64,000 bases of DNA from Cirrosporium novae-zelandiae (taxonomy: Eukaryota): assembly GCA_026023565.1 (NCBI GenBank), contig JAPETS010000008.1:682001-746000 (forward strand), read 5' to 3'. The position numbers and the translations under genes are program-made. This document shows, one piece after another, positions 9,430 to 31,635 of this stretch (the first letter of the stretch is position 1; each line of letters opens with the position of its first letter). The notes under the pieces were generated by a model that did no database searches, was not told where the DNA came from, and was given only the letters and a program-made list of their open reading frames with translations.

Positions 9430-11100
9430 AGCAATTGGTCTCACATAATAGACCTAATACATGCACAAGATAGTGCCAATCCAACCTATCAAAAAGCTAG
9501 CTAGTGCTGCCAACCTAAGAGGCAATTTGCTCTTGCCATTCCAGACTTCTCAGTCGAAGTCTTCTCAATCCCACTTTTGAAAGATGAGATGTTTCTCCAG
9601 GGCCATTGCCATTCAGATAATGGTCCAGTAGCTAACTAGGGAGAGAAATTTGAGAAAGGTATCAAGTAAGAATACGCGTCCAGCAATTGCACAGATGATG
9701 TAGACGATGACTACAAAGGTCGACCAAACAAACCGAGGTATCCGCTAAGTTAACGAATAAGGAGCTGAAATGAAAGTGCCGTTGAATATGCATCTTGGGA
9801 CCAGTTAATTTGTTATCCAACGAGAGATACTAGAAAATATTACCTGGAATGCTGTTGCCTACAACACCCAATGGCATGATGACGGCTAAAGAATTTCCGA
9901 ACCCTCCTGGGGAGAAAGGCTCTCAACCATGAGATCTCCTATCGAAACATCAAATACTTAGACCCATGAAGGGTTTACGGAAAGCCCGCTCCCTATATTA
10001 GGATGCTAATCAGAGGAAATTCAACAAGAGCAAACATACGCAAGCCAATGTCAATGAACTCAACAAACATCTTCCCGAGACTGAAGCTAATAGTAGTTAT
10101 GAGAAAGATCCGCCATTTTGAGGTATTTTTCGGAAGATATACATAAAAGTCGGCAGCCGCAAGAGACCAGATATCCGGCGGGGTCAGACGTACGAGGGAC
10201 GAGTACTCGCAAATGTAGCACCGGTTCCAGTGCTTGGAGTCGTGGTGTCGAATAGAGGCAACGCATAGCCTATCATCATGAAAAGAATGCAAACTTAAGG
10301 TATCCAAACATATTTACTCGTACGACGGTTTAGGACCGACAGAGAGGTAAGAGGGGTCCGGGTAAGTACTTGCCTGGGATATCCGAATCCCAAACGTAAG
10401 AACAAACCAAGGAATGATCGCTAATATAACGACTCTCACAGTTGAAGTCGTACCACCACCATTGATGGCCGATAGCATAAGTCCCGCCACCAGCGAGTCC
10501 ACAAGGCTGAATCCTAACATACACCAAGTTCAACCTATTGACATCATTAGCACCACCCGCATCTCCATTTACATGTTTCTTGTAACACAGAAGGAGTCTG
10601 CACAAACTCGCAGTATGCAAAGAACCGCCGGGTAATACCCCATGGTATATCTCGCAATAATCACAGTCCAAACGTCGATACATAACCCGTACAAACAATT
10701 TCCAAAATGGCCCCAAAAAGACAGTACCTTAAAAATAGCAAACCCACAGAAGTCAGCTCAGCTATGCGCATCCAAAAAGCAAACCCCCCATCTTCCCCAA
10801 AAAATAAATAAATAATACCACCACCACCACCATCGTCACCACCCCCCCACCTCCAACCCCACGGGCCCCAAACCTCCAATTATCATCTCATTAACCATAT
10901 AATTTGCACCAAACCAATCCATCTACACACAATCCAGCAAAGCCACCTTTTGTAACCGCATCATCTCGAGCACTTTGTCGATCCCTCGCGCTTCCAGTCC
11001 CGCAAGTGCGTTTCAAATCCCATAAAACCAAACCAGGTGAAGCGAAAGAAACAAAAAAAAACCACTTACGATCACTGATATCAGATGGTAGTGGGATAGA
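9430..11100 (-). pseudogene. Decayed purine-cytosine permease (NCS1, Fcy2/Tpn1-like)
   Basis: Fragments lie in different frames: GLEARGIDKV, WFGAN..LGP, GYVSTFG, LGFSLVDSLVAGLMLSAINGG, WSLAAADFYVYLP, IPRFVWST and YWTII*MAM. There are multiple frameshifts and stops. Boundaries are approximate. Confidence 0.8.
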
Positions 11101-11362
11101 AGACAGTCCCAAAAATATAATTTTTGAACATAATCCTTTTCCTATCTACGCATTTACACATCTAACCAGGCGACTACTTAGCTACTTAGTCATCCCATGA
11201 GGTTCAGAGACGAAGAAACTAATCTCGATCTAGCGGAACAAAACATCTCTTTTCTCATTAAAAGCTTAAGAAAAAAGCCGTTTCTACATATAATGATATT
11301 GGGCATATACAGTACCCCCAATGAAAACATAGGCCCCCCTAAGGCTCTATGATATATATTCG

Positions 11363-12530
11363 TCAGACCCCTCTTCCCAAAAATGTCCTTTCCCCAAACT
11401 CCAATTCGGCAAGCTGGAAAATGGGTAATGCCATGACTAAAAAGAAATAACAACATTATTCATTAGCAATTTGTCTAAGGCATGAGTAACACGCCCCCAC
11501 CCCTCCCTCTCAGTAAGAAGAAGAAGAAGAAGAAGAAGAAAAACTTACAATACCCATTCCCACTCCTCCCCAAAGCCTCCCACGTACTCCTCGCCTCCAC
11601 CTCCCCAATCTCCACCAGCGGCACCCCCGACCCCGCAGCCGACGCATCCGCCTCCAGCTGAATATGGCAACACCGATCGAGCAGCTGAAACCAGAATACG
11701 ACTTCTTCGATTGTTTGGCCGGCGGTGAGGAGGCCATGGTTTCCGAGGAGGATTGCCTTTTTAGAGCCGAAGGTGGCGGCGATGTGCTTGCCTTCTTCGG
11801 CGGCGAGGACTACGCCTGCGAAGTTAGGGTAGAGGGCGTGGTCGTTGTGGAAGACGCAGTGGTCTTGGGTTAGCATTTGTAGTTTGCGGCCTATGGGGTA
11901 TGGTTAGGCTGAGTTGGTTTGGGTTAGAAGGGGGGGAGGATGTGAAAGACGAACCAGTGGCGCAAAAAGCGCGCCCATGAAGACTATGAGAATGCGCAGC
12001 ACAAAGAACATCAGGTCTCGCAGCATGAATTTCCGAATGTATCGCAAACGCCGCATAATTCAACAGACGATTTCTCCCCCCCTCAATAACCTTCCCATCG
12101 TGATTCACCAAGATAAGATCATCATCCGTAATCAGGGAAAAATGCATCCCAAATGGGTTGACCCAGAAGCTTGTTGGATCTACTGGATCTCTTAACCTAT
12201 AGATTCGCATATATCAATCATAGATTAGTACTTTTTGGGGGGGTGGTGGTAATAGTAGAGTAGTGGTGATAAGGTTACCTACGTGATATGTCCAGCAACC
12301 CCATCACAAAAGTCGAACTTCGCAAACACCCGAAAAGCCAACGCAAGTCTATGCTTCAGATACGCTCGCTGCTCATAAGGATCTGAGAATTGAGGTGGTC
12401 CCGTTGGAGTCTCGGAGGGAAAGGCGAGGTCGGGATTTCCGCTTGTGTAGACGTCTTCTTTAGCATGAGCATTTTTGACTTTATTGTCTGGTTCCGGCTG
12501 GGTAGTAGTAGTAGTAGCAATAGGTGCCAT
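11363..12530 (-). CDS. Class II aldolase/adducin-family protein
   Basis: Motifs GVAGHIT, RDPVDPTSFWVNPFGMHFS, AAFAIHSEIHAARPDV, AAHSHS and LLGNHGLLT carry the Zn-binding His residues. The final exon FMALPIFQ...GRGV* was inferred by hand. Confidence 0.9.
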
Positions 12531-12780
12531 TTTTAGGCGTATAAATGAATTCCTTAATTAATTTAATGAACCAAAGGCTCTGCTCGGAGTAGAGGAAAGA
12601 ATTCAAGAGATAGAACATATAAACACAAGCTTTAGGCCCCCTTTAGTCCACTTGACACAATTAATAAAAAAAGAAAAAATAGACGGACGAATCGATTCAA
12701 TATTATTACTAACTAACTACTCTCCAAATAAACAAAGCAACAATTAAAACATTTTTGTTGCGAACGAACATGTCCGAAAC

Positions 12781-13015
12781 AACTATCGTTATCGTTATCG
12801 GGATTTGGGATTTTGATAGATAGATAGGTAGCTAGGGTAGCTACCCCACCACCACTCACCACTCATCTCTTACCAACTGCACACTCTAATTCCAGGATAA
12901 GACAGGATAACAGCGCCACAAGGTACTTACAGTACTTACACTCTCTCTCCCCCCTCTCCTATCCCACAATGGGTTATCCGTTATAAAAAAAAAGGTTATC
13001 GGCCTCTTATCCGAA
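12781..13015. promoter_or_regulatory. GATA/CGG motif-dense divergent promoter (aldolase <- -> dehydrogenase)
   Basis: GTTATCGG at 12794 and 12995, GTTATCCG at 12973, CTTATCCG at 13006, and GGATAA twice near 12895-12910. Confidence 0.55.
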
Positions 13016-13433
13016 TCAATTGAGCTTAGGTTCATTCTTCAGAATTAAAGTTACGTCAAGTTCAATCCCCCCCTCCAACCCCTCTAAAATGAATCGGGGC
13101 CAATTTTTTTTTGTTAATTTGTGACTCCGTTATTATGTGTGGGTAGGTACCTATGTAAGTAGATAGCGTCACTTTTTTTGGTTCCACTCTGTGAGACCCA
13201 AAGGGCCTTTTTGCCAAGACTTGAAGGGCGTGTAGGATCTCCGTGTGTGACAGAACAAGGTTTCATCCAGAAAGATCTCATATCTAACAATTGACTTTTT
13301 TTCAAAAAAAAAAAAAATTTCCATTTGGTTTACTTGGTGTTTGTTTGTTGTATATTCATAACCAAAAGGCCCACCGAGGATATTTTGATATTTGAATTGA
13401 ACTTTTCATTTGTAACCTTGCTCCAAACAAAAC

Positions 13434-14411
13434 ATGACTGTCAAAAAACTTAAAATTGTCTGCCTAGACGGCTGTTACCTCCCTGTCCCGAGGCCCGATG
13501 TCGTGCACGAATATACCGAATATCCCAACACCAAGCCCTCCGAGGTGCTCTCGCGAGCCAAAAACGCCAACATCATCATCACCACCAAAGTGCCCCTCAC
13601 CGCCGAGACTATCAACGCATGCGCGCCGCTGGGGTTAGAGATGATCGCCATGATGGCTGCGGGAACGGAAAATGTGGATAAGGAGGCTTGTCATAAGAAT
13701 CATGTGCTTGTTACGAATGTACCCTCGGCCTCTGCGGAGTCGGTGGCTGAGCACGCGATTGCGCTTTACCTGGCTCGAAAGAGACGGATTGTGGAGCTGG
13801 ATGCTATGACGAAGCGGGGGGATGTTTGGAATATTAAGGGTACTATGACACATCATTTTGGTGGGCCGCCAACGGGACTGCGGTCGGACGTTATGGGGAT
13901 TATCGGGTACGGGGGATTGGGAAAGCGTATTGAAACGCTGGCACGGGCTTTGGGGTTGTCAGTACTCATTGCAGATCGTAAGGGAGCCAGACCAGAAGAG
14001 ACCCGAGAGGGACGAACCTCCTTCGCAGAAACAATTCAGCAGAGCACCGTTCTCGTTCTCGCCTGTCCGCTCAACAAGGACACCAGACACACGATCGGAG
14101 AACAGGAGCTGAGGGACATGCGCAAGGACGCCATCCTCATCAATGTTGCGAGGGGTGCCGTGGTGGACGAGCTCGCGCTCGCGATTGCATTGGAGGAACA
14201 CCAGATCGCGGGCGCAGCTACGGATGTCTTTGGAACGGAGCCAGCGACGATGGAATCGAGTCCGCTTCTGCAGAGGAAGCCGCCGAACCTGACGGTGTCA
14301 CCGCATATTGCGTGGTATGCGACGACGAGTATTGAATATCTGCAGGATACGGTTAAGGGAAATATTGAGGCGTGGGTTGCGGGGAAACCACGGAATATTG
14401 TGGTTGAGTGA
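13434..14411 (+). CDS. D-isomer-specific 2-hydroxyacid dehydrogenase (glycerate dehydrogenase/hydroxypyruvate reductase-like), intronless
   Basis: 325-aa ORF with the GIIGYGGLG Rossmann motif and the catalytic Arg/Glu/His in INVARG, DVFGTEP and SPHIAW. Confidence 0.93.
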   Translation: MTVKKLKIVCLDGCYLPVPRPDVVHEYTEYPNTKPSEVLSRAKNANIIITTKVPLTAETINACAPLGLEMIAMMAAGTENVDKEACHKNHVLVTNVPSASAESVAEHAIALYLARKRRIVELDAMTKRGDVWNIKGTMTHHFGGPPTGLRSDVMGIIGYGGLGKRIETLARALGLSVLIADRKGARPEETREGRTSFAETIQQSTVLVLACPLNKDTRHTIGEQELRDMRKDAILINVARGAVVDELALAIALEEHQIAGAATDVFGTEPATMESSPLLQRKPPNLTVSPHIAWYATTSIEYLQDTVKGNIEAWVAGKPRNIVVE

Positions 14412-15852: not shown

Positions 15853-17537
15853 ATGGATGATATTTCTGATCAGAGGTCCCGTCGATTAGACATCTCTCAA
15901 CTGATTGAAGAAAGCATCAATGCCCATACGCCCGCAATACAAAAGATAAATGACACAGTTCTTCTCTCCATTTTTTCTCTTAGTTAGAGAACATCGAATA
16001 ACTAATACTATTTGAGAGTAGATCTGGAGCAATCCCGAGGTGGCCTGGCATGAGAGAACAGCCCATGATACCATCTGCGACTACTTCGATTCTTTGGGCT
16101 CAGACTATAGCGTCCATCGACACGCATATGGGATCGAGACTAGCTTTTTGATCCAAGCCACCACGCTAGACTCTTCTATTCAGTCTAACCGCACTCGAAC
16201 GATAGTGTTTAATGCCGAGTATGATGCACTTCCCGACATGGTCCTTATACCGAATACCGATCCCCCCCAATACAAGCCGGCACATGCCTGCGGGCATAAT
16301 CTTATAGCTTCTGCATCTATTGCAGCCTTTATTGCTTGTTGGCAGGCGTTGAAAGAGACAACGTTCCAAGGCACGGTGAGACTTCTCGGTACTCCTGCAG
16401 AGGAGAGTGGCGGAGGAAAAATCAAATTGCTAGAAGCAGGTGCCTATAACAATGTCGATGCTTGCATGATGGTCCATCCGGGGCCGTTAACCTCCGATAA
16501 GAATCTGAGAGCAGTTTCTTTTACTACGAGCCTTGCCTCGCAAAGGGTAACAGCTGACTTTAAAGGGCTTGCTTCACACGCTGGATTCGCCCCTTGGAAA
16601 GGGAAAAACGCACTTGATGCTCTAGTGACCTCCTATGCCGCTATTTCAGCGCTCCGTCAGCAACTACACCCATCCCTCAGAGTATCTGGAATTATAACAA
16701 ACGGAGGGACCGTCGCAAATGTCATACCGGATCACACCGAGGCAGAGTACAGTATCCGAGCCGAATCCAGGAAAGAGTTGGAAGACCTCCTTGAAAAGAT
16801 CATCCATTGCTTTGAAGCGGGAGAACAAGCGGCAAACTGCACTGTGGATGTGGATGAGTGAGTGATTTCCCCTTCTCTTTTACCAAATCGCATGCGATTT
16901 ACATTATACTAACTCAACCTAGCACAAGACCCGCCTATTGGGAGATGATTTCCAATAAATGCCTTTGCCATGATTTCACACAACGCATGAATGAGTTCGG
17001 TGTCGATACGGTTTACGATCTACCCGAACTCACCAATGACGCGGGTGTATCCACAGACCAAGGCAAGATGAATGCACAATAGCATACCGAGGCGAGCCCA
17101 TTTTGGCTAACGTAGCAACTATAGGGAACGTATCTCATTTTATTCCGGCCATGCAGGCTGGGTTTTTCATCGACAGTGGAGATGCTATCAACCACATGCC
17201 CGCATTTGCAGATGCCGCTGGCACCATGGACGCATTTGAAAGAGCACTAGACTGTGGCAAGGGTCTGGCAGCTATGGGATTTGATGTATTAACCGATGCT
17301 GTGAAAGTCGCTCAAGTAAAGGATTCATATATGCTAGATATCTCTGCTAAGGCGGCTGCTGTTGCTCAAAATTATGGGAAAGAAGTCCCAACTCAAAAAC
17401 AGATTGACAATTTGCTGGCATCACCCCCATCCTTGTTTGAACCCCTACTTAAGAATCTTGAAATGGGAAGAGAACAGGTTATTGGAGCTCTAATGGCAGT
17501 CGATGCTTTCTTCAATCCAAAGAGAGGATTGCTGTAG
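15853..17537 (+). CDS. M20 amidohydrolase (Acy1L2/PM20D2-like)
   Basis: ATG at 15853; after intron 1 the protein reads IWSNPEVAWHE. Further motifs are NAEYDALP, HACGHNLI, GTPAEE, and STDQGNVSH, which is formed across a GC-AG intron at 17063-17124. Confidence 0.9.
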
Positions 17538-18053: not shown

Positions 18054-19543
18054 CTAATTTCCATACTTTTTCTCCACCTGGATGTTGTACTTCAGGAACG
18101 CATTTAGCAGAATCTCAGCGCTGGTAACGCAATCTTCTGGTCGTGCGTATTCCGATGCTTTATATTTGTCAGCTTGGGTGTTCTTGAATCCTGATATTTA
18201 AATCAACTTACGATGATGGCTCACACCGTCTCTACACCTTGTGAATAGCATCGCCGTGGGAATTCTAGTCGATGTATTTACACTAATGGGTTTATAGGTT
18301 AGAGGGATATCCTCCAAATTTATTGAAAGAAGAAACTTACCTGTCATGACCAATAGCTGAGGTCAAATCAATGGTACATCCCTTATCCCGACAGCTCTCT
18401 CTCAAACATTGGACCATGGTGGGATCAAATACTAGTGCCGGTTGTGTCCATGAAACTTCAATGTCTATCTTCAATCCATGCTGGGCTGCGATATCCGCAA
18501 AGGTCGATCTGACCATTTTTTCAATATCATCAATATCCCCATCCTTTGGAGCTCGGACGTCGATGGTGAAATCTGCGCTCTCGGCAATGGTGTTGATACT
18601 TTGAGGTGCTGATTCGATAACTGCGACGGTGGCCTTTGCATTCAGCTGAGCAAGCTTTTTTGTTACTATTTCATTCGTTTCAACTATCATCTTGGCAGCA
18701 CCAAGCAGAGAATCTTTACGCTGATCCATTGGGGTTGAACCGGTATGCTGGCCTCGACCTTTGATGGTAACTTTTAACCATCTAATCGACTGTACACCCA
18801 TGACTGCTCCTGCTGCCTGTTGTGCCTGATCTAGGATTGGACCTTGTTCGATATGGACCTCGAAATGGGCGAGAAGAGGGTTCTTTTGATATGAACAAGG
18901 CACGTCGCCAAGATATCCTGCTCTCTCTAGTTCCTCCTTCATTGTCACACCAAAACGGTCAGCTAGGGCATGGCCATAGTCCTCCGTGTACTTTTCTATC
19001 CAGACTCCAGACCCATGCATAGCTTGAGGGAACCGAGCACCCTCTTCATCTGCCCAGTTGACAATCGCCAAAGGGGCATAAGTCTTGATATTATTTTCAT
19101 GGACGACGCGCAGGACCTCGAGAGCGCAAAGTATACCTAATATACCATCATATTTGCCTCCAGTTGGCTGTGTATCTAAATGCGATCCTAGTGCCACCGG
19201 GGCAAGGTCATTGTTAATACCGGGTCGGATGGCAAAAATATTGCCCATGGTATCGATCTGAGACTCGGTCAGAAGATATTGACTACTTTAATCAAATAGT
19301 GCAACTCACCTTATGGGAACAGCCGCATTTTTTGGTTTGTTCCATGAACCAGTCTCGGACCAATTTGTCATCGTCGTTCATTGCTACTCGGTTCATTCCC
19401 CCATCTGGCGTACTAATTATCCAATATTCTTAGTTTGATCTCATTTCTTAACTCTCCGTGTCTTCTTACCTTCCCCATTGGCAAGACTCATCAAAGCTGG
19501 CGAGCATACGCTCAGCATTTACTTTCACATCCGGTAATGCCAT
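18054..19543 (-). CDS. M20 hydantoinase/carbamoylase-family amidohydrolase (beta-alanine synthase/allantoate amidohydrolase-like)
   Basis: Motifs GGMNRVA, GSHLDTQPTGGKYDGILG, NWADEEGARF, HFEVHIEQGP, HTGSTPM, SAIGHD and GVSHH. It ends ...KKYGN*. Confidence 0.92.
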
Positions 19544-20200
19544 CGTTTGAACAATTGATTTGGAACCTTTTGTCGCTTCAATTGCGGGAGTCCCAGGTCC
19601 TATATTAACAGCTACCTCGACGGCCATGATTAGCCCTCTGTCGGAAATAGGATCCACTTGGCCGCTATCAGATTGCTTACCCGCTCATGACCCGGCCGTC
19701 CACAATATTTGAATTTGTGAAGAAACTTATAGAATTATTTTTGAAGGAGCTGGCTTGGGGCAACAAGGAGTTCTCCTTTCACTACTGTGTCCATCAACTT
19801 GCGCCAAGGCACTCCCCTCAACTTGGATATGTTACTCTACAATTTATTTGTTATTGTCCGAATTTTGGGCGATAATAATCTCGGGTCTAGATTGGAGTTG
19901 GTGTTACGTAGGTGGGGTCGACGGATAAGAGCGCCGCTAGTCCGCGTCCCACCAGGCCCACTACGCCCACCTACACCCCACCCCCATCTTTAATCCCCTG
20001 CAATTCTGGCAAGCTTTCCTGCTGTCCAGTTTCAGTATCAATTTCCATTCACCTATCGTTGGTACCTCAAACCCAGATATGAAGTTCAACATAAACTATT
20101 TGGGGGACAAGGCGTCCTCCGCATCTTGTTGTGGGTTCCCTCTGGAAGTAAAAACTGTTTTAGTGCTTCCGCTCTATTGTATCAATGATATTTTGGCGGA

Positions 20201-23200
20201 ATGGCTGAAGTCCGAAGAACGGTGTTGTCCTGTGCTAGATGTCGAAGACGGAAGATCAAGGTATTTTTTCTATTTTTTCGTAATATGTTAAGAAAAAGTC
20301 ATGAGACCAATAAACATTTGAGCGAAATCATAATCTATTCATCTGGAGCTCCTCCACAATACCATCCCCAGTTTTCGGACCTCGGCCATCTCTCTGCTCT
20401 AGTTCGAATGCGTGGTTCTGATGATGAACCGTGAATATGTTTAAGCTGACGGCCGAACTAGTGTGACCGTAGGCTTCCAGCCTGTTCCGCCTGCGTTACC
20501 TCAGGGTCAAGCTGTGTGGGATTCAACTCGAAAGGTACTACTGAAGTTCCAAGGAGTGTTGTTTTGCACCTGGAAGAGGAGATTGCTCGGATAGAGATTG
20601 AGCTGGGCCATTGCGTTGAACACCCAGACAAACCAGGAGTTCCTATAGAATCTCCAGATGGACAACTCGATACCGAGCAGGTTCCTACATCTAATGGGCT
20701 GTCAGCACCCACCGACGGCGGACCTCTGACAATGTTAACAGACTCCGTCAAGGAATGCGTGATGGCTTCCCCGGAACTTGAAGCCATGATTATGGCAACA
20801 AAGCCACCCGGCCCTTCTATCTCAGATTCGGTATCAAGGATTCGTATGGGTCTGACACCGTCCCGCCCAGTTGTTCCGGCAGCCACCAGTGATAAACAAG
20901 GCCATCGGGGGTCTATCACCGCCCGACCAGCCCAGACAGAGCCAGGAACTCCTCTACTTTGCAGCGTATGTTGAAAAAGTGGAATATCCTAACAATCGAG
21001 ACTAAAAGTTTGAACTAGATACCTGGTAGCATCATCCATGGTTTAGTAAAGAAATATGTGACCCATATTCTTCCTAGCTGGCCACTACTTTATGAGCCAA
21101 CAGTTTGGGCACAATTGGAAACAACCTTGCAGCTAATTGACAAAACCCGAGGTTCTCTAAATCAATGGGGAATATTGATGGAGCCCCCAAACTATGATGT
21201 TTTGGTAATTCATCTTATTCTTGCAATTTCTGTAACCCTAGGGAGTGCACAGAGTGCCCATGAATCTCGTTGCATGGCTCTTTCGGAATCACTTTTCAAA
21301 GAAGGAATCACTCATATGTCTAATAAGCTTTATTTCCCCAATGACCTTGCCAACTTGCAAGCGACGCTTTTGATATTACAATATGCTTGTATCAATCCAA
21401 AGGCTGCCTCTGTGTGGATTCTTTCAGGTGCCGCGATGAGTAAGCCACTTCTCAAACTCAATATGAACTCAGATCACTGATAGCACTAGGAACTTGTGTT
21501 GAATTAGGAATACACAGGGAGGCATCTGAAAGTAACAATATGTATATGGATCCGGTGACTATGGATTTAAGAAGAAGAGTATTCTGGTTTGCTTATTGCA
21601 TGGATCGCTCCATTTGCTCTGCCCTACAACGGCCTCTATCAATACCAGATTCGGCAATTGATGCTTGTTTCCCTTCACTACTAGGCGACCAAAGTATATC
21701 AGGATATGGCTTTGATCAGCGTGGAAGTATGAGCAAGATTTCAGCGTTCCGATGGATTGAATATTATCAATTACAATCTTCGATGATCGAAGTACACTTC
21801 CAAGGAAAGCCGCTAGAAACTGGCCAAAGCTGGGATGACTGGCTTCAGCTGATAGAACGCAGACTGCGCCAATGGTATCAAAATGATCCTGATAGTGATG
21901 AGGAAACAGAGTTTGCATTCTGGCATGGCCTTGCTATTCTACATCGGCCTTCCCCAAGAGTTCCATCCCCTTCTGCAGGGAGCCTCTTGACTGCTTTTGA
22001 AGCGGCCTCGGCATCTGCCAGGATATATCATAACCATCTTCTTTCTGGATTCTATCGACGTCCATGGCTTGCTGCCCACCATACCTTGGAGATGTCAATG
22101 GTTGTTCTGTACTGCCTTCGCAATGGGTTCGAACACATTTCTAAGAAATTCAAGGCTCACGAAATATTTGAAATGACCAAGCTATTTACCTCTAATTTTC
22201 TGACGATTTCTCAACAAGGATGGCCGGAAATTTCGGAATATGCAGCCATCTACGAGAGGTTACTAGGGCCTCTGTTGGAATCGGTATTTACAAGATCAAA
22301 TAATCCAAAAGCGATGGCATTTGGTCTAGCACAAGATGAAGAACTCTCCAGACTTCTATATCCCGGACCTGCTCACCTCGAAAAACTACGGTTTGGCACC
22401 ACAAAAGAACCATGTTTAGATATATTTCCTCCTTTCAACATCGAAATGTTTGATTTTGAAAGTGAGTATCATGATCTGATTGCTAGTACGAGAGAAGAAA
22501 TGTTTCACGCTATACCTACAGCCTTCCCAGCATCAACACCTGCGATCGTTATAGACGAAGGAAATAATTCTAAACTTTCCTCTCCTTCGTCCTCCACCCA
22601 AAGGGGTGATGTAGAAAATGAGCAAATTTATGCAGCATTAAAACTACTCCCAAGTTGCCTGAGATGCCGGAGACTAAGAAGGAAATGCGACCTTCGACTT
22701 CCAGGGTGCAAACACTGTATGCAGGTCGGGGTTAGCTGTAACTTCAAGGATCCAGCTCTGGAAGAGGATATTTCGAGAAGCTATGTTCACGCCTTGAAGC
22801 TGAGATACGAAGGCCTAGTTGCAAAGAAGGCTGCTAGCCTTGGTCCAGTCATTACATCAACTCTGCCTGGGAACGATAACTGTGAGATGAATGACACTAC
22901 AGCCGCAATGCTAATTGCTTCAATCAAATTACCTCCTGGGAGTTATAGGGCATCATTTGATGGACACTATCGCATTAGGGCTCCTTTTGGTCACCGATTC
23001 GCCTTCTTCGGTAAGAGCTCAACCTACGCGCTATGCACAGAAGTCCTTTCTCTAGCGTCTTTCAAGAACCCTACTCAGCGTGCCTATCCTTGGCTTCCAC
23101 CGCTGCCGAACCATTTTGGGTTCAATGATAGGCCTAGCATGATAGAGTTGCCACCAAATACCACGATATTAGATATGCTTACACTATTCCAATCCACTAT

Positions 23201-24452
23201 CAACGTTATATATCCTTTTATAAACGGAAGCAAAATCCAAGAGGACTTGGACGTTTATCTTACATTGCACAGCCAAAAGATGTTTAACCCTGCTTATTTA
23301 AGCCCAACTGAAGCTTATCAACACTTCCGAGTCACAATGATGTGTGCGATTGCATGTGTTATGGAATCACGACATGATCAGAGTTTTGCTGCTTGCGCTG
23401 ATACATTTTTCGCAGACGCTGAAAAATGCGTTGAATCTGTAACATCCGAGACCGCACCAGACTCATTACAAGCTCTGTTACTCCTTGTCGTATTTCATCT
23501 ATTTCAACCCCAACGGGGGGAGATATGGACGCTTCTGGATTTTGCCTGCCGCTTGGCTATCGAACTTGGATATCACACCGAACAAGCCCTACCATATGAC
23601 GAGAATCATGTGCAAGAATTACGTAGGGGAACTTTCTGGTCTTTGTATACTATAGAGCGCATAGTCGGACAACTCTACGGGCGCCCTTCCGATTTACCAG
23701 AACCTATAATCACTACGGGCTATCCTTCAATCCTGTCGTCTGTGCTTCCAACTGACCAGGAGACGGTACAAATGGTTTCATCCGCACATCATTATCGCCT
23801 TGTTTATCTACGTTCGGAGATTTACAAGGAAACATATCTTTCTGCTACCCCTATACATCATGATCTTTCATGGCTAGAGGAGCGTTACATACCACTACTA
23901 CGATGGCACGAAAATGCAAAGACCCGGGAGTCGCTGGAAGGTGTAGGCACTGTCACTTGCAATGTGGCATATCACTCTACCGTTATTTTTCTATTTCAGC
24001 CGTTGGTCCTTGAAACTCTAGCCGCTGCAAGAAAGACCAATTCACTATCGGGACCAAAAAGACAAATACCTGCTGATAGCTACTGGTCTGCTCGAGAATT
24101 GATTAGATGTTACGAGAGAGTAATTCGGGCCCCAAACCATTCACCCCTCGGAATTTATCCAATGACGTTTATGTCTGCGCATTATGTCGTTCTTGCAGCA
24201 GCGACACTTTTAGCTCACTGGCTCCTTGCGGTGGATAAACAGACAGAGCATCTGCAGCCTCTCTACGAAGTCATCAGACAACGAATACCCCAAAGCATTG
24301 TCGACTCTGAGATATTTGAACTTTCGCACTCGACTGTAGCTGTTCTTTCTTGGTGTGGGGAGCGATGGAAGGGCTTGTTGGGGATGCTGGACATCTATCG
24401 ACGGGTGTCCGAAGAGGTCTTGCCAGAGTTTATTCGAAATATGGGCGAATAA
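20201..24452 (+). CDS. Zn2Cys6 transcription factor with two tandem Zn-cluster + fungal TF-domain modules (~1315 aa)
   Basis: Exons are 20201-20260, 20462-20965, 21019-21439 and 21490-24452. Cluster 1 is CARCRRRKIK|CDRRLPACSACVTSGSSC; cluster 2 is CLRCRRLRRKCDLRLPGCKHCMQVGVSC at 22656-22739. The two MHR motifs are ELGIHR..LRRRVFWFAYCMDR and ELGYH..LRRGTFWSLYTIER. Confidence 0.9.
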
Positions 24453-25198
24453 GGGAGTATATGATGATTTAACTGCTGGGCTGGTTCAAGTCAAATATTT
24501 ATTATGTTATCTTCTTTTGTTATGAATTGTGTCGGTCGTGAACTACCGAAATCATGATTGATGAAAATAAAAGAGGGGGGTCTAGAAAAGGATAATACTC
24601 CAAGGAGGGTAAATTGCTATTTTTGCTTATCGAGACCGTTTTGATACTATGTGAAAATGCACAAGGTTATGCGAATTCAATAAAAATCTGCCATCAAAGA
24701 CTTACAAGTCGTAGATGCCTTGAATGTGATGGAATGATGTCATATCAGATAGCTACCCGAGTAGGGTTAGAATATCCCTGGCCCTTATCGTTCGCCAACG
24801 GAGGTGTTATCGGCCGGCGGCCCCCAACTTCAGTCTGACCTCTTAACAAAAGATCCACTCAAAGATCTCGATTCTCGACCTAATCCACGAGCTAGATCAT
24901 GTCCGCAAACCATGATCATATCCCCATTCCCCCAATATCCGTCAGGAACACCATGGTGGGGTCGATAAGCTTCCCTCTTTTTCCCTCGAAGAAGTCCGCT
25001 CAAAGCTACCAACGGAGAACCACGCTCTTTTTTTCTTATTGCCGTGTAACAACACCTGAACCATCAACCAACAATATGTATCGCATTAACTCTCTTGGTC
25101 TTCTTCATCAGAGGCGCTGGGGATTCCTCTTTCACTTGTTTTCTTTGTGGACCTGAATTCACCTCATCTCGTAGAAGACCCCTATCACCACGCCCAGC

Positions 25199-26565
25199 AT
25201 GACCGACAAAAAAATCGCCATCATAGGTGGTGGCCTCGGCGGCATGTCCTTTGCAAACGCAGCCCTGTACCACAACCTCACCAACATCGCCCTATACGAG
25301 CAAGCGCCCCAATTCAGCGAAGTCGGCGCCGGCGTCAACATCTCCAGCAACGCCCTCCGCATCCTAGACGCCTACGGCCTCAAAGACAGCATGACCCGGA
25401 GATCCTCACACGATCCTCCCTGCTGGATGGACTACCGGCACTACAAAACAGGAGAGTTTCTAGGCCAGATTGACGAGCTCGGGGAGCCCACCAGCCGGCA
25501 GATTCACCGGGCGCATCTGCTAGACACTCTAAAGGAGCGGGTTCCCTCGAGCGCAATCCACACCGGGAAAAAACTCATAAACATGCGGAGCCTAGAATCC
25601 TCCGGTGGGGGCTACGAGCTCCAGTTCGCAGATGGCACAACCGCAAATGCAGATCTCGTTGTCGGGTGCGACGGTATTAAAAGCAAAGTACGACAATACA
25701 TGGGCATTACCGACCACCCAGACTACTCGGGCCAATGCGTATACCGCGGCTTCGTCCAGTACGAACACCTGCCCTCAGCCACGGCAGCCCTCTTAAGAAA
25801 AACCGTCAACTTCCGTGGCCCGCGCCGCCACGTACTGACGCTCCCCGTCGGAAACGAGGAATCCAACACCGCCCAGGTTGGCATCATCGTCTTCGTGACA
25901 GAGTCTCTGGATTCCTGGAAATCGGAAAGCTGGATGGCCCGTGCGAGTATTGGATCTCTGGAAGCGCATCTTGATGGCTGGTGTCAGGAGGTGCAGGATA
26001 TTCTGGAGGGGCTGAAAAGGGGGTCGGGGGATGGGATGGTGCTGAAGCAAACGCTGTATGTGAGAAGTCCAGTGGAGAAGTGGTTCGAGGTTCAAGAGAC
26101 GCATCCCGAGTGTGGGGTCGTGCTGGTGGGCGACTCGGTGCATTCGACACTACCACATCAAGGCAAGTGAACCTAACTTTCTCTCTTCCATCCCTTCAAC
26201 CTAATCCAACCATATTTCACAAAACTAACAAACCACCCACAGGTCAAGGCACCTGCATGGCCATCGAATCCGGCGCCTGCCTAGCCCGAATCCTCTCCCA
26301 CTTTTTCTCCCACTCCCCCTCTCCATCCCTCCACGCCCCCCTATCCCTCTACAAATCCATCCGAAAACCCCGCACAGATCGTCAAACCCTGACGTCATTC
26401 CAAACCGGAAAACTGGCTTCTGCGGAAATTATGGAGGGAGAGGAGGAGAGCGGGATTGGGATCGACTCGGAGGCTTTGAGGGAGAGGATGAGGTGGCTGA
26501 TGGAATATGATTTGTTTAGGGATGTAGATGAGAGGGTTGGTGGGGGGGGCGAAGCGAGGTTGTAG
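25199..26565 (+). CDS. FAD-dependent aromatic monooxygenase (salicylate hydroxylase/6-hydroxynicotinate 3-monooxygenase-like, group A)
   Basis: Motifs IAIIGGGLGG, EVGAGV, IHRAHL, VGCDGIKS and LVGDSVHSTLPHQG|QGTCMAIES. GC-AG intron at 26163-26242. It ends EARL*. Confidence 0.93.
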
Positions 26566-27591: not shown

Positions 27592-28945
27592 TCACTTCTT
27601 TTTACTAAATTCAATAGCAATCCCCACCGCCTCCTCCAACCTATCCGTCCCCTTCCCCCCCTCCCCCACGCCCAAACCCAAAACCCCTTCATCCCACCCC
27701 CCTTTCTCATCATATAACGTCCTCCCCTCAGTCCAAATCCTCCTCAACGAATACACCGCCGCCAATGGCTCCCCACCTTTCCAAGCCCTCTCCTCCAACT
27801 CCCGCAGATGATCTAGGGAAGTATATTTGATGGACCAGGGGGAAGATGTTTGGCGCTCGAACTCGGCGACGATTTCTAGGGGTGTGGTGATGAAGGAGTG
27901 AAGTTTTAGGATGTGGGATTTGGTGGTGGGGGGTTGGGAGAGGAGGGTCTGGAGGAGGAAGTTTGCTACGCTATGTGTTTTTTGGGTTTGGTTAGGTGGC
28001 TGTTTGGAAGGGGGTGGGGGTAGGGAAAGGAAGGGATAAGAAAGGAAAAAAAAAAAAAGGACTTACTCCCGACAAGTACAAAACGCAACCCTCCCCTTTC
28101 CATCCCCCAAAACCACCGCCTCCCTTCTGTGCACATCAAACGACCCCGCCTCCACCGCCGCCCTTCCACTCATATCCGAAAAATACATCGGCGGCCTCGG
28201 ATCCGCATACGGCCCCGTAACCAAATACCAATACTCCAACCTCCTTCCATTCTCCCCCGTGGTAGCAGCAGCGACCTCGGCGGATTTCTGCTCCAGCCAC
28301 GCGCGCACTTTCAGTTTGGCTTGGTGGGGTTTTTCGTGTGCGGAGGTCGCATCGAAGGCGATGTCGGTGCCGTATTCGGAGGGGATGAAGCGGTGGATAG
28401 TGGGGGTTTGGGCGGCGAGGGTTATTAGGGGAATTTGGGCGAGGAGGGCGTCACGGCCGAGGGCGCTAATTATGGTGTCGATTCCTGGGGGGGGGGGGTT
28501 AGTTTTTCGTTTTTTTTTTTGGCAAAAGGGGATGGGATGGGAACGGGGAATGGGTGATTTATATATCTCCCTCTTCCTCCCTTCCTCCCTCCTCCTCCCC
28601 CTACAGCAACCCTGAACAACCACCACCACCAAAAAAGCATCCCCAACAAACAAAACAAAACCAAAAAAAAACCCACAAACCTCTATAGGCCGCCCCTACA
28701 CTCTCCAAATCCCCCAAATCCCCCACAAGAATCTCCGCCCCCTTCCCCTTAAACCCTTCAATCACCTCTTTCTTCCTCTCAGCCGTATCCTGTGAAGTGA
28801 AAATAGCAATGCGCTTGAAGGGGGGCGGGGTTGCGTTTAGGAGAGCAGTGGTGATGTAAGATCCGATTTTTCCGGTTGCGCCTAAGATTAGGATGTTTTG
28901 GACTGGGGAGGTCGGGACGGGTGGAGAGGGGGAGGAGGAGGACAT
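27592..28945 (-). CDS. NmrA-like/isoflavone reductase-family atypical SDR
   Basis: Motifs ILILGATGKIG, GIDTIISALGR, RFIPSEYGTD, HQAKLKVR, YLVTGPYAD and YSLRRIWTEG. Two introns inferred. Confidence 0.88.
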
Positions 28946-30498
28946 TGTTGTGGGTCTGGTTGTGGTTGTAGTTGTGGTGGTGGGGTTTTTGATGGTAGCA
29001 GTGGGGGGAGAAAAAGAAGAAGAGGGGGAATAAGAAGCAGCAGCTGTAGGATCTGGGGGGAAAGGAAATTGAGAGAAGCAGTAGGGTTTTGAATTGTACA
29101 TTTTGTGGCTGGAGGGTTTGAAGTTATATAGACCATATATGAGTGAAGTATTTACTGGTTAGGTTGTAAGGTATTTTTCTTTTTCTTCTATTAAGACGTT
29201 ATAATTACGTGCTTACTTACAAAGGGCGTACCCTTGCATGTGGCATGTATTTCCGTATGTAGGTAGATATGGTAATCTATGTTTTTAATCAATCAATTAA
29301 TATCGCTCGGGGAATACGCGTTAATGAGGTTATGGTTATGATTATAGTGGGGAGGGGAGTGGGGGGGATGTTGGCTTCCTTCACCCTCCAACCGACCAAC
29401 CTCATAAGTTCATAAGTTCATAACTTACTGTGTATATGTCACAATAGAAGAACATTGATACCAATGTGACCAATCACTAACCTGGTATTTATGGCATCGG
29501 ATAACAATGTAGATATCTATATGAAAAAAAAAGATACTGTAAGTTAGACTAGTTTGTTACGGATTTGCATAATTACATGTTTGCATCGTTTGCTGTATTA
29601 TATTTTATCAAGAAGTCTTTAATTACTTAGTCTAAATAATTCAACTATAGCTAAGTAAGTGTACAAACAGGTATCTAGTTATACGAATTGCTAATGTTCA
29701 TGTTCTCTCCCACAGTAACCCAGTCTTAGACCGAAGGACGGACATCAACGCCTCCTCTGGTCCCCTCTTTCTTATTCGCAAGAACCAACGATCGATCTCT
29801 TATCCAAACTGCCCCACCATCGCCCCTGCACCCCCACTTTCCTAGCTATCTTCTTCCATAAACAAAAACAAGCTAACCCTTGCCTGATAATATTCGAGGA
29901 TGGCCTATGGCCTGCGCTTTGTGGAGAGAGAGAGGGGGTTGTGACAGGGAAGAGGTAAGCTAATTACTAGGAGGAAAGAGTGGGAGGGAAGAGCAAGAGG
30001 GGAAGGCCGTTTAGATCTTCTCCGACGTGGATCTCCGATGGAAGGTCTATGTGTGTATATGCATGCACGCATGTATCCAATGACCAATAGCCCATTTCTG
30101 ATTGATCCATTAATCAAAAGAAGAACCTGATTAGCTACAGTACCTAGCTAGTTAGCTAGGACATCTCCATCTGCTCCCCTCTGTCTTCAAGAAAGATGCG
30201 GAAGAACCTTGGCTTTTTTTTTATATTTTAGATGAAAGAAAGAGAGGGTTTGCTTTCTTAAGGGATAATATATACTAGTCTCTCTCCTCATTTTTTTGGA
30301 GGGTTTTTGAAACTTCAAGTTTCTATACACATACACATGCAGTAAAGGGGGATGTTATATCATTATTTAGGTCGTTCGTGATATAAGATATATAGCTCCT
30401 ATTTCAGAAAGGCCTTCTTCTTCTTCTTCTTCTTCTCCAAATCGAAACGAACACCCACCCCCTCTCTCAACTCCAACCATATCAACACTCCAACCACC

Positions 30499-31635
30499 AT
30501 GGGCAAAGTCGTCGCCGCAGTAGGCATGTCACACGCCCCCGGCGCCCTCGCCTTCCCCGAAACCTGCAACGCTCCCCAACGCACCGCAACCGAAAAAGCA
30601 TCCGCCGCCCTGGGCAAGACCCTCACGGACTCAAAGCCCGACGTCATCTTCGCGTTCCTGGACGACCACTTCGAGAACTTCTACCGGAACCTGATGCCGA
30701 ATATTAGTATTAGCGTGGCGGAGACGCACGAGGGCCCCGCAGATCAGTGGATGGAGACGCTGAGGATTCCTAGGAAATACCAGTTTCCGGGGTGTCCTGA
30801 GGTTGCGGAGATGGTGCTAGAGAGTGTGGTGGAGCAGGGATTTGACTGGTTTGTTTGGATCCTTTTTTTGTTGTTGTCTCGGCTTGATGTTTAGGAAGAA
30901 AAGGATGTCCAAGGAAGTAGAGCTTGTCTTGCAGATTGACTAATTAGCTAACTATTCCCCTCCCTTAGTGCTCGCACCGGTCCCGTCGAATACGGCAACA
31001 ATCTCCTAATGCCCTGGCTGCTAATGAACCCCACCCTCCCCCAAACCACACCCATAATCCCCATCTTTATCAACGTCTTCACGCCACCCCTAATCAAATA
31101 CTCACGCGCCTACGACTTTGGTCTCGCGATACGGCACGCGATCGAAACGGCCCTCCCACCCACCCTCCGCTGTGCCCTCCTGTGCACGGGCGGTCTCTCC
31201 CACTGGCCCCCCTACTGGAACGAGCACCAAGCCAACCCCGCCGACACCTTCCTGAACCGCATGAAAGCGTACCAAACCCTCGGAAAGCCCTACCTAAAAA
31301 CCGACCCGAACCTCTTTGTCGATTTCGATAACTATGAGATCGAGATGGCCGCCAAGAATGAGTATCCGTTGAACTCGAAACATCCGCTTGTGAATGAGGA
31401 GTGGGATCGTATGTTCATGGAGAAGCTTTGTGGAGGGGATAAGGCGTTTTTGAGGGGAATGACGTATCAGGAGGTGGAAGAGCAGGCGGGGCATGGCGGG
31501 CATGAGGTGCTGAATTGGGTTGCGTTAGCCGGGGCCATGAGGGGAGAGTCGGCGAAACTGCTGTGCTATGAGCCTGTTGTGGAGTGGATTTGTGGAATGA
31601 CTTATGTGGATTTTGAGGTGCCGACTGTGGAGTGA
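30499..31635 (+). CDS. Class III (LigB-fold) extradiol ring-cleavage dioxygenase, PydA-like
   Basis: Motifs VGMSHAPG, FLDDHFENF, EYGNNLLMPW, TGGLSHWPPYW and GHGGHEVLNW supply the Fe ligands His/His/Glu and the catalytic His. One intron at 30849-30968. The PydA-subfamily assignment is from recall of the family signature and needs an HMM check. Confidence 0.85.

Follow-up and report, generated by a model that had tools for sequence, protein, structure and literature searches.

The 9.8-31.6 kb region of the window, a 64,000-nucleotide stretch from a MAG of Cirrosporium novae-zelandiae, raises the question of whether its metabolic genes form a single pathway and, if so, on which compound that pathway acts. 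When 76 stop-to-stop ORF translations (8597-32358) were scanned against Pfam, 11 gave matches, and their families were exactly those named in an earlier sequence-only reading of this DNA: Aldolase_II (minus strand, 11478-12213), 2-Hacid_dh (plus, 13416-14408), Peptidase_M20 with M20_dimer twice (plus, 16022-16858, and minus, 18340-19287), Zn_clus/Fungal_trans with two Zn_clus domains (plus, 20462-24449), FAD_binding_3 (plus, 25175-26167), NmrA (minus, 28604-29158) and LigB (plus, 30382-31632). Every family on its gene list was thus recovered in the region by Pfam or homology, and strands and ORF positions agreed with the three divergent pairs that it had described, namely aldolase-fold gene/2-hydroxyacid dehydrogenase, M20 carbamoylase/transcription factor, and NmrA/LigB. 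The region is flanked on the left by an amino-acid permease and ORFs without a family, followed by malate synthase, and on the right by EF3. A promoter motif common to the cluster genes was searched for and none was found. Our preferred interpretation, held with moderate confidence, is that this is an uncharacterised catabolic cluster drawing nitrogen or carbon from an N-heterocycle of the 3-hydroxy-4-pyridone/3,4-dihydroxypyridine type or from one of its precursors, for example a 4-pyridone.

Each family is common in fungi (for example, 7997 relatives of the carbamoylase-type M20 at E<=1e-20), as would be expected if metabolic genes without any relation had come to lie together by chance. However, eight of the nine families recurred in a different order on a metagenomic fungal contig (L003), where the flavin monooxygenase, two transcription factors, LigB, the aldolase-fold protein, the 2-hydroxyacid dehydrogenase, the carbamoylase-type M20, the NmrA-like protein and an apparently intact NCS1 permease lie within 17 kb. 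A further locus, L004, carries the aldolase-fold, NmrA-like and LigB genes. Homologues of LigB and the carbamoylase-type M20 were present on equal-sized contigs in 11 species or assemblies, and their accession numbers or locus tags were 2-5 apart in 13 other genomes, comprising all 11 species pairs checked by accession (preselected for equal-sized contigs) and two checked by locus tag. These 13 genomes belong to four ascomycete classes besides that of the window, the cluster hosts being Xylobotryomycetes, Leotiomycetes, Sordariomycetes, Eurotiomycetes and Dothideomycetes. The aldolase-fold gene was numbered among the LigB and M20 genes in 8 of the 13; it adjoins the set in Rhinocladiella (Z518_10677/10678), and it is merged with LigB in one gene model of Diplodia seriata. 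The grouping is far beyond chance, and a coincidental neighbourhood is hardly credible; this is a genuine catabolic-type cluster, conserved in patches across Pezizomycotina.

The dioxygenase gene (30499..31635, plus strand; exons 30499-30848 and 30969-31635; M1834_009326, P0001, 338 aa; PF02900) had been likened to the class III extradiol dioxygenase PydA, and several results support this assignment. Its top NCBIfam model was NF009913, on which it scored 416.9 bits as compared with 427.7 for PydA of Rhizobium CB3060, to which it is 48% identical. The alignment of 16 fungal and bacterial sequences contained 79 invariant columns, and H12, H57, H195 and E296 aligned with H12 of gallate dioxygenase and H61, H195 and E242 of LigB, the metal-binding and catalytic positions thus being retained. 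The published pydA primer motifs, given as DDHFENH and EWICGM in PMC3637104, appear in the window protein as DDHFENF and EWICGM. In the tree, the 23 fungal rows grouped together with an SH-aLRT support of 98, and this single clade lay within sequences from Pseudomonadota, indicating that the fungal enzyme has a bacterial ancestry. A second, DODA-like LigB gene is located elsewhere in the window (44563-45270), separate from the cluster dioxygenase.

These comparisons also bear on the alternative that the substrate is a plant aromatic without nitrogen, of the catechol, gallate or dihydroxyphenylpropionate type, which would fit the computationally defined "aromatic ring dioxygenase" (ARD) phenylpropanoid class. 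Homologues of the dioxygenase bear database names such as "protocatechuate dioxygenase subunit beta" and "2,3-dihydroxyphenylpropionate 1,2-dioxygenase", the cluster monooxygenase is nearest to salicylate hydroxylases, and the ARD cluster models are described as enriched in plant-associated fungi in bioRxiv 10.1101/184242. However, on the models for MhpB, gallate and protocatechuate enzymes the dioxygenase reached only 66-109 bits, and its matches to MhpB, gallate and LigB enzymes of solved structure had E-values of only 1e-13 to 2e-18. Nor is it obvious what the conserved amidase and the NCS1 permease would do in a pathway free of nitrogen. The grouping with PydA rather than with these enzymes is therefore supported by the sequence comparison, and we regard a nitrogen-free substrate as rather improbable. 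Since identity to PydA is 48%, the substrate of the fungal enzyme is not fixed by this grouping. The only genetically defined member of the clade described in PMC7356986 and PMC3637104 acts on 3-hydroxy-4-pyridone; as the latter account has it, PydA was never purified, so that the reference activity is based on genetics.

The monooxygenase (25199..26565, plus strand; PF01494), a group A FAD-dependent enzyme of salicylate-hydroxylase/NicC-like type, matched salicylate hydroxylase (6.5e-32), NicC (2.7e-26) and MHPCO (5e-14) in the PDB, and its homologue in L003 is 64% identical. In 12 bacterial loci, the gene that immediately follows the PydA-like one downstream encodes a homologue of this protein (about 30% identity), a pairing that fits the order of hydroxylation and then cleavage proposed earlier. 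We detected no homologues of the aldolase-fold, carbamoylase-type M20, NmrA or transcription factor genes in 89 non-fungal loci, consisting of 2 plasmid records, 59 bacterial genome loci and 28 metagenome loci (about 35-55% identity, taken to be bacterial). The bacterial contexts of PydA-like genes varied, with an alpha/beta hydrolase in 6 of 10 loci, RidA in 5 and FAH in 4, suggesting that the PydA-like family may act on several substrates.

The carbamoylase-type M20 gene (18054..19627, minus strand, five exons; M1834_009322, P0121, 450 aa) scored 339 bits on TIGR01879 (cutoff 204), and its top NCBIfam models were of the allantoate amidohydrolase/carbamoylase type. The other M20 gene (15853..17537, plus strand; Pfam M20 and M20_dimer), resembling PM20D2 Xaa-Arg dipeptidase, scored 167 bits on TIGR01891 (cutoff 153.75) and matched PDB entry 7yh4 at 1.3e-47. 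Both M20s of the sequence-only reading are present, and the first is conserved near the dioxygenase; the second has no homologue in the 21 kb of L003 examined, nor in L004, and its absence from L003 makes its membership of the cluster uncertain.

The closest solved relatives of the carbamoylase-type M20 are N-carbamoyl amidohydrolases (4wjb, 8e-70; beta-alanine synthase, 8e-64), and such an enzyme would be no less suited to a product with an N-carbamoyl group, as might come from a pyrimidine-like ring, than to one with an N-formyl group. This raises the alternative that a pyrimidine-like or other diazine/ureido heterocycle (e.g., hydroxylated uracil) is hydroxylated and opened by LigB, the N-carbamoyl group then being removed by the M20 as CO2 and NH3. 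NCS1 permeases often carry nucleobases; moreover, a xanthine/uracil permease and an isochorismatase-family hydrolase stand beside the PydA-like gene of an Enterobacterales-type metagenome locus (L009), and another locus carries an NCS1. However, we are aware of no pyrimidine-opening enzyme of LigB type, the genetically defined activity in the clade is that on 3-hydroxy-4-pyridone, and domains of dihydropyrimidinase, dihydropyrimidine dehydrogenase and barbiturase were all missing from the window by Pfam. We thus consider a pyrimidine-like substrate unlikely, and prefer a hydroxypyridone-type compound.

The permease of the window itself (9839..10730, minus strand; purine-cytosine/pyridoxine type) was located by tblastx/tblastn homology to L003 19966-20948, an ORF that the protein atlas assigns to PF02133 Transp_cyt_pur (feature score 0.93; structure TM 0.87), whereas the window fragments gave no Pfam match. 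What is one continuous ORF in L003 is interrupted in the window by a stop codon in frame, near 10300, and by a shift of frame that falls within 12 bases, between 10190 and 10178. The permease had rightly been called dead, and its loss suggests that the pathway may be decaying in this genome. The cluster also carries its own regulators. The ORF at 20201..24452 (plus strand; our model P0338, 1315 aa) contains two Zn_clus and two Fungal_trans stretches with no stop at the junction, and had been read as a double Zn2Cys6 factor. Although both domains do lie in one ORF, its halves share a mere 27% identity over 132 aa and are separate adjacent ORFs in L003; nearly all library relatives are likewise separate, about 600-670 aa long, and match query residues 11-340 or 374-998. 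Two different regulators in tandem are thus fused in one frame here.

The gene labelled an aldolase (11363..12530, minus strand; exons 12530-12282, 12195-11953, 11888-11550 and 11434-11366 plus stop; M1834_009319, P0261, 301 aa; PF00596) has the Aldolase_II fold and belongs to NF004855/PRK06208 (NF004855, 307.8 bits; cutoff 255). Its top PDB match, 4xxf (1.4e-69), was deposited as fuculose-1-phosphate aldolase, but the closest named solved relatives are the decarboxylase NovR (6e-61) and TqaM (9e-52), and it retains the H-x-H ... H pattern in blocks aligned with them; the match to the HMPDC decarboxylase 2z7b was weak (1.5e-16). CloR/NovR are described as oxidatively decarboxylating alpha-keto and alpha-hydroxy acids at a three-His iron site (PMC13111500), and TqaM as NovR/CloR-like (PMC12006828). 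A true aldolase role thus appears doubtful. The divergent single-exon gene (13434..14411, plus strand; PF02826, PF00389) encodes a D-isomer-specific 2-hydroxyacid dehydrogenase resembling glyoxylate/hydroxypyruvate reductases (5tx7, 1.4e-43; glyoxylate reductases, about 1e-35), and the pair is also present in L003. The NmrA-like gene (27592..29101, minus strand; start codon at 29101 or 28948; PF05368), which encodes an atypical short-chain reductase of PCBER type, matched phenylcoumaran benzylic ether reductase in the PDB, though weakly (1.9e-5); it recurs in L003, and also in L004, where it is again paired divergently with the dioxygenase.

DOPA dioxygenases of the LigB family serve in biosynthesis. 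In the accounts cited (PMC13111500, PMC12006828), the NovR/CloR and TqaM enzymes that have been characterised likewise act in antibiotic or amino-acid biosynthesis, and one might suppose that the cluster produces a small metabolite instead of breaking one down, its extradiol product recyclising in the manner of betalamic acid or muscaflavin-type chemistry and then undergoing NovR/TqaM-like tailoring. We consider this very improbable: within 9.4-32 kb Pfam detected neither a PKS nor an NRPS, and no terpene synthase, prenyltransferase or exporter; the cluster dioxygenase differs from the DODA type, the DODA-like gene lying apart; and amidohydrolases and, in L003, a permease of the uptake type accompany a NovR-like protein that sits in a catabolic-type setting.

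In the hydroxypyridone pathway that we infer, as to substrate, every reaction and their order, the compound would be imported by the NCS1 permease (decayed in this genome), and the group A flavin monooxygenase would install a hydroxyl next to the ring oxygen, maybe with loss of a carboxyl. The PydA-like Fe(II) dioxygenase would then cleave the ring and so give an N-formyl enamine alpha-keto acid, comparable to the N-formyl alpha-keto acid 3-(N-formyl)-formiminopyruvate reported for bacterial cleavage of 3,4-dihydroxypyridine (PMC7356986). The steps after ring opening are guesses, because the PydB/KpiB-type alpha/beta hydrolase, RidA and FAH were all missing from the window by Pfam. The NovR/CloR-like three-His metalloenzyme, the 2-hydroxyacid dehydrogenase and the NmrA-type reductase may shorten and reduce the alpha-keto acid chain, and the carbamoylase-type M20 may remove the N-formyl (or N-carbamoyl) group to leave a small amino acid and formate, probably under the control of the two Zn2Cys6 factors.

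The pyd locus of Rhizobium sp. TAL1145, which we take to be equal to CB3060, comprises the pydA dioxygenase, the pydB hydrolase and the pydCDE transporter, and acts on 3-hydroxy-4-pyridone from mimosine. Its dioxygenase falls into the same LigB subfamily as the fungal enzyme, and both loci have regulators and a transporter of their own. However, the alpha/beta hydrolase, ABC transporter, FAH, RidA and GntR regulators of the Rhizobium plasmid locus are replaced in the fungal cluster by the NovR-like enzyme, 2-hydroxyacid dehydrogenase, M20 carbamoylase, NmrA-like protein, flavin monooxygenase, NCS1 and Zn2Cys6 factors. A similar logic, in which a flavin monooxygenase (KpiA) yields 3,4-dihydroxypyridine, followed by extradiol cleavage (KpiC) and deformylation, is described for the kpi 4-hydroxypyridine pathway of Arthrobacter sp. 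IN13, which includes the hydrolase KpiB and the FAH KpiD (PMC7356986). It differs in that KpiC has an amidohydrolase fold rather than that of LigB, and that KpiB, an alpha/beta hydrolase, and KpiD have no counterparts in the fungal cluster.

The hxn cluster of Aspergillus nidulans reportedly contains group A flavin monooxygenases, amide hydrolases and permeases, as does the window cluster, and to our knowledge it has no LigB dioxygenase. The window, on the other hand, lacks a cyclic imidase and a 2OG dioxygenase, and Pfam found neither a Mo-hydroxylase nor a C2H2 domain among its ORFs, in agreement with the earlier view that the two systems are different. According to PMC9304392, hxn is likewise a fungal, transcription factor-controlled cluster for catabolism of an N-heterocycle, nicotinate. 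Finally, the ARD models of Gluck-Thaler and Slot, as outlined in bioRxiv 10.1101/184242, are also unexpectedly conserved clusters anchored on a ring-cleaving dioxygenase, with an enrichment in plant-associated Pezizomycotina, and may already include the present cluster; unlike our hydroxypyridone interpretation, they were predicted to degrade phenylpropanoids.

A Pfam scan of 76 stop-to-stop ORF translations from 8.6-32.4 kb gave a match for 11, all of them to families named in the sequence-only reading, and every catabolic-type gene family listed there was recovered. Gene models were derived from the exact mapping of three database proteins and from ORF reading. They comprise an aldolase-fold gene (11363-12530, minus strand, four exons), a 2-hydroxyacid dehydrogenase gene (13434-14411, plus strand, single exon), an M20 amidohydrolase gene (about 15853-17537, plus strand), a carbamoylase-type M20 gene (M20c; 18054-19627, minus strand, five exons), a Zn2Cys6 regulator ORF holding two fused transcription factors (20201-24452, plus strand), a flavin monooxygenase gene (25199-26565, plus strand), an NmrA-like gene (27592-29101, minus strand) and a LigB dioxygenase gene (two exons, 30499-30848 and 30969-31635, plus strand). 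The arrangement in three divergent pairs described earlier was seen again in these models. The cluster is flanked by CBP4, malate synthase, amino-acid permease, EF3 and GH76 genes, and its host, Cirrosporium novae-zelandiae, is a member of the Xylobotryomycetes. The last intron of the aldolase-fold gene (11435-11549, minus strand) contains a long homopolymer-rich run, which reads as poly-F, poly-L and poly-K in the frames; in a MAG, runs of this kind may give rise to assembly slips. Elsewhere in the window (54493-62501), a DUF6540 gene, a split methyltransferase gene and a Fungal_trans regulator gene lie near one another and may constitute another small metabolic cluster.

The exon of the window dioxygenase was 100% identical to M1834_009326, a hypothetical protein of the C. 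novae-zelandiae MAG, and PF02900 was matched in both exons, identifying the protein as a class III (LigB-type) member. Residues H57, H195 and E296 aligned with H61, H195 and E242 of LigB, and H12 with H12 of gallate dioxygenase; all four were invariant in an alignment of 16 fungal and bacterial sequences containing 79 invariant columns. In the numbering of the LigAB structure, we take the LigB metal ligands to be His12, His61 and Glu242, with His195 as the catalytic residue. The best NCBIfam model was NF009913 (PRK13373, "putative dioxygenase"), on which the window protein scored 416.9 bits as compared with 427.7 for P0074, a PydA-like plasmid protein of Rhizobium sp. CB3060, both scores being below the curated cutoff of 462; the runner-up models (MhpB, gallate, protocatechuate) gave 66-109 bits on the window protein. 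The two proteins shared 48% identity. The P0074 locus, on a plasmid of a Leucaena isolate, carries two GntR regulators, an alpha/beta hydrolase, an ABC transporter, FAH and RidA, and it matches the published pydA-pydB-pydCDE locus, whose gene arrangement, like the identity of CB3060 with TAL1145, we presume here. PydA is described as a PF02900 3,4-dihydroxypyridine dioxygenase (PMC7356986, PMC3637104), and the motifs DDHFENH and EWICGM are given as the basis of pydA primers (PMC3637104); the fungal proteins read DDHFENF, the last residue being changed from H to F, and retain EWICGM unchanged. The window also has, at 44563-45270 (plus strand), another LigB-family gene, which is of a different type, DODA/YgiD, and scores 84 bits on NF007914 ("4,5-DOPA-extradiol-dioxygenase"), below the cutoff of 233, and an MFS transporter gene (40435-41505, minus strand) lies about 3 kb upstream of it.

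A maximum-likelihood tree of 62 rows, built quickly and with a Chloroflexota sequence as the root, was used to examine the relationship to bacterial enzymes; the solved MhpB, gallate and LigB enzymes, which match the window dioxygenase only at 1e-13 to 2e-18, were left out of it. The fungal dioxygenases formed one clade of 23 rows (SH-aLRT 98). The rows nearest to it were a Bordetella MAG and two other proteins, and its sister group was a 22-row Pseudomonadota set containing PydA; these, together with one further row, were united with the fungal clade at a node of 49 rows (SH-aLRT 97), with Actinomycetota, Dormibacterota and Chloroflexota branching outside. This pattern fits a bacterial origin of the fungal dioxygenase gene, a direction that would hang on the root. 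Within the fungi, the branching in this quick tree ignored class boundaries, placing Pseudocercospora with Thozetella and Sporothrix (Sordariomycetes), and Paecilomyces with Botryosphaeriales, which hints at fungus-to-fungus transfer of the cluster, a lead rather than a result. The bacterial locus nearest to the fungal clade, that of the Bordetella MAG (L066), has LysR, TctC, aminotransferase and N-formylglutamate amidohydrolase genes nearby, and none of the fungal partner genes was found in its neighborhood.

The surroundings of the bacterial genes were then compared with the window. Among the neighbors at 10 bacterial loci, an alpha/beta hydrolase was present at six, RidA at five and an FAH-family hydrolase at four. 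The downstream set of the pyd/kpi type is described as converting 3-(N-formyl)-formiminopyruvate to formylpyruvate, pyruvate and formate (PMC7356986). None of its members, namely the alpha/beta deformylase (PydB/KpiB), the FAH acylpyruvate hydrolase and RidA, was detected by Pfam among the window ORFs. The proposal of an N-heterocycle catabolic cluster is partly supported: a conserved catabolic cluster with a PydA-type dioxygenase is present. When all window gene pieces were searched by tblastn against 89 non-fungal loci (2 plasmid records, 28 metagenome loci and 59 bacterial genome loci), no homologues of the aldolase-fold protein, M20c, the first M20, the NmrA-like protein or the transcription factors were found in these loci. 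Weak matches to the 2-hydroxyacid dehydrogenase occurred in 6 loci, and matches to the monooxygenase in 18. A monooxygenase of about 30% identity was encoded directly downstream of the dioxygenase in 12 loci (Erwinia, Raoultella, Klebsiella, Sodalis and relatives, Martelella and one metagenome locus), making the hydroxylase-dioxygenase pair a recurrent one. The rest of the fungal cluster, judged from these searches, appears to be a eukaryotic invention. A larger pyd-like operon was also noticed in Enterobacterales and relatives (L009, L033, L034, L037-L041, L045, L049, L053 and L067). At L009, the sole such locus annotated with Pfam, the order is GntR, alpha/beta hydrolase, ABC transporter, RidA, FAH, PydA-like protein, flavin monooxygenase, xanthine/uracil permease and isochorismatase-family hydrolase, a set that points to a pyridone with an amide or carboxyl group as the true substrate in these bacteria.

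A scan of metagenome contigs with the fungal dioxygenase alignment returned 30 loci, two of which were fungal: L003, covered over 21 kb of a 46-kb contig, and L004, covered over 4.5 kb. L003 encodes, in order, the monooxygenase (64% identity), two tandem Zn2Cys6 transcription factors, the dioxygenase (66%), the aldolase-fold protein (about 70%), the 2-hydroxyacid dehydrogenase (35-44%), the M20 carbamoylase (61%), the NmrA-like protein (45%), a 2OG-Fe(II) oxygenase and an NCS1 permease, an order different from that of the window. L004 contains the aldolase-fold, NmrA-like and dioxygenase genes. The divergent pairs aldolase/dehydrogenase and NmrA/dioxygenase are preserved across L003 and L004, and no counterpart of the first M20 (ORF 16022-17534) was found in the 21 kb of L003 or the 4.5 kb of L004. 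The 2OG-Fe(II) oxygenase gene of L003 (17617-18871, minus strand) lies between the NmrA-like and permease genes; no remnant of it or of the L003 flanking ORFs was found in the window.

To extend this comparison to other fungi, homologue lists of the dioxygenase (best 120 of 237) and M20c (best 120 of 7997) were compared, and among the matches listed at least 11 species or assemblies had the same "longest contig" value in both. In 11 of 11 species pairs looked up, preselected for this shared value, the dioxygenase and M20c accession numbers were 2-5 apart, adjacent numbers serving as a proxy for gene adjacency in place of a reading of the contigs themselves. The species were Coleophoma cylindrospora, C. 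crateriformis, Whalleya, Phaeomoniella, Lophiostoma, Mytilinidion, Lophium, Lophiotrema, Thozetella, Mollisia and Phialocephala; locus tags gave further pairs in Sporothrix curviconia (000275/000270) and Neonectria punicea (007847/007842). The aldolase-fold gene was numbered between or beside the two in 8 of these genomes, and in Rhinocladiella the aldolase-fold gene Z518_10678 adjoins the dioxygenase gene Z518_10677. The cluster hosts belong to five ascomycete classes. A 544-aa protein of Diplodia seriata (P0284) combines aldolase-fold (PF00596) and LigB (PF02900) domains in one gene model, representing either a true fusion or two merged neighbors. Taken together, four lines of evidence show that the grouping of these genes is more than chance, and we consider it highly probable that they form a co-inherited catabolic cluster.

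The dead NCS1 permease of the sequence-only reading proved to be real by homology. Bacterial NCS1 and NCS2 proteins used as tblastn probes detected nothing in the window, and Pfam at E<=0.01 gave no match on the remnant fragments (9.4-11.4 kb) or on the NCS1 ORF of L003. The window stretch 9842-10729 (minus strand) matches L003 19966-20877 (plus strand) by homology in successive segments, which lie in a single frame in L003 and in alternating frames in the window. The 207-aa L003 ORF was assigned to PF02133 (NCS1) in a protein atlas (sequence features 0.93, structure TM 0.87), and relative to it the window copy is broken by an in-frame stop and a change of frame, both within 12 bases. Since the L003 ORF is NCS1 and the window copy carries these disruptions, we regard the pseudogene as real, although an error in the MAG assembly may lie behind them.

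The double Zn2Cys6 regulator was likewise found as one ORF in the window; it consists of two different regulators, which are separate in L003 and in nearly all relatives. The 1002-aa ORF at 21444-24449 contains no stop from the end of the first Zn2Cys6/Fungal_trans protein into the second, and the two halves share 27% identity over 132 aa. Among 1.84 billion representatives searched, the matches were the window's own 1315-aa model and, otherwise, proteins mostly of 600-670 aa that covered residues 11-340 or 374-998 of the query; one 1550-aa protein matched the second half alone. In L003, the two factors are encoded by separate, adjacent ORFs. Their separation in L003 and in relatives indicates a cluster with two dedicated regulators, and the fusion, by this comparison, is confined to this genome or arose in its assembly or annotation. 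A genuine gene fusion, the loss of a stop codon or an artifact of assembly or annotation could explain it. Gapped CGG/CCG pairs showed nothing consistent across five window and five L003 promoter regions, the best pattern occurring in 4 of the 10, and ungapped 7- and 8-mers in the promoter regions did not exceed 30 shuffles.

As to the partner enzymes, the aldolase-fold protein scored 307.8 bits on NF004855/PRK06208 (cutoff 255), and its PDB matches were 4xxf (1.4e-69), deposited as fuculose-1-phosphate aldolase, the NovR decarboxylase (6e-61), an unnamed class II aldolase-fold protein (2e-53) and TqaM (9e-52). CloR and NovR are reported to be three-His non-heme iron enzymes that oxidatively decarboxylate an alpha-keto acid and then an alpha-hydroxy acid (PMC13111500), and TqaM to be a NovR/CloR-like enzyme carrying out an oxidative decarboxylation (PMC12006828). 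By these matches, the window protein is a NovR/CloR-like member of the class II aldolase fold with a putative role in oxidative decarboxylation. Its gene is paired, in a conserved divergent arrangement, with one for a 2-hydroxyacid dehydrogenase that resembles glyoxylate/hydroxypyruvate reductases, and the NmrA-family reductase is PCBER-like. M20c scored 339.3 bits on TIGR01879 (cutoff 204), placing it in the hydantoinase/carbamoylase family, and beta-alanine synthase and N-carbamoyl amidohydrolases are among the solved enzymes closest to it. The nearest solved enzymes of the monooxygenase were salicylate hydroxylase (6.5e-32) and NicC. Pyridoxine degradation pathway I was considered and rejected: the 2z7b decarboxylase (Mlr6791) matched the aldolase-fold protein only at 1.5e-16, as compared with 6e-61 for NovR, and MHPCO matched the monooxygenase at 5e-14, as compared with 6.5e-32 for salicylate hydroxylase.

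From these likenesses we infer the roles of the partners. The monooxygenase could hydroxylate the ring, either directly or with decarboxylation, and M20c would remove an N-formyl or N-carbamoyl group. Because the expected product of a PydA-type enzyme is an alpha-keto acid and the conserved divergent partner is a 2-hydroxyacid dehydrogenase, we propose that the NovR-like protein, this dehydrogenase and the NmrA-family reductase may trim and reduce the cleavage product. A fuller and less probable scheme would lead to beta-alanine. Opening of the 3-hydroxy-4-pyridone ring would yield an N-formyl enamine alpha-keto acid, which the O2-dependent NovR/CloR-like enzyme, together with the 2-hydroxyacid dehydrogenase, would oxidatively decarboxylate; the NmrA-type reductase would next saturate the product, and the beta-alanine-synthase-like M20 would release beta-alanine and formate.

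These data confirm a real, conserved and uncharacterized catabolic cluster with a PydA-type dioxygenase at its center. We hold it as likely as not that the cluster acts on a hydroxypyridone-type ring, and the whole scenario, in which Pezizomycotina took up a bacterial pydA-type gene once and a eukaryotic pyridone-to-beta-alanine route was built around it, is speculative and rather improbable. If true, it would represent a new pyridone-to-beta-alanine route without a bacterial counterpart, and might serve 4-pyridone NAD catabolites, 4-hydroxypyridine or plant mimosine-derived pyridones. The cluster itself offers a clear example of genes gathered around one that was apparently transferred, with chemistry downstream that differs, and it bears on the catabolic role that a NovR/CloR-type non-heme iron enzyme may have. 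Its conservation extends over at least five ascomycete classes, with endophytes, black yeasts and pathogens of wood and trunks among the carriers. Its key enzyme is apparently of bacterial origin, and its one dioxygenase, one monooxygenase and two regulators offer a testable entry point to the fungal removal of plant and microbial pyridones.

No fungal PydA-type or hydroxypyridone pathway was found in the literature searched. Gluck-Thaler and Slot present computational "ARD" fungal cluster models anchored on a ring dioxygenase (bioRxiv 10.1101/184242), and these models may already include the present cluster under a phenylpropanoid heading. The Fusarium FDB1/FDB2 lactam clusters were considered and set aside, their ring-opening dioxygenase FVEG_06463 not being listed in a cluster with the gene content seen here (PMC10512309). 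A pathway of the hxn type was also rejected: as had been noted, the domains of the HxnS-type Mo-hydroxylase and the C2H2 regulator HxnR were absent by Pfam from 184 ORF translations across the window. The hxn nicotinate cluster of Aspergillus nidulans is, to our knowledge, the sole N-heterocycle catabolic cluster worked out in any eukaryote; the present cluster would be the second, unrelated to hxn, with which it has only a general style in common. As compared with the bacterial pyd and kpi pathways, the fungal cluster lacks their downstream enzymes, whereas its presumed first steps are like theirs.
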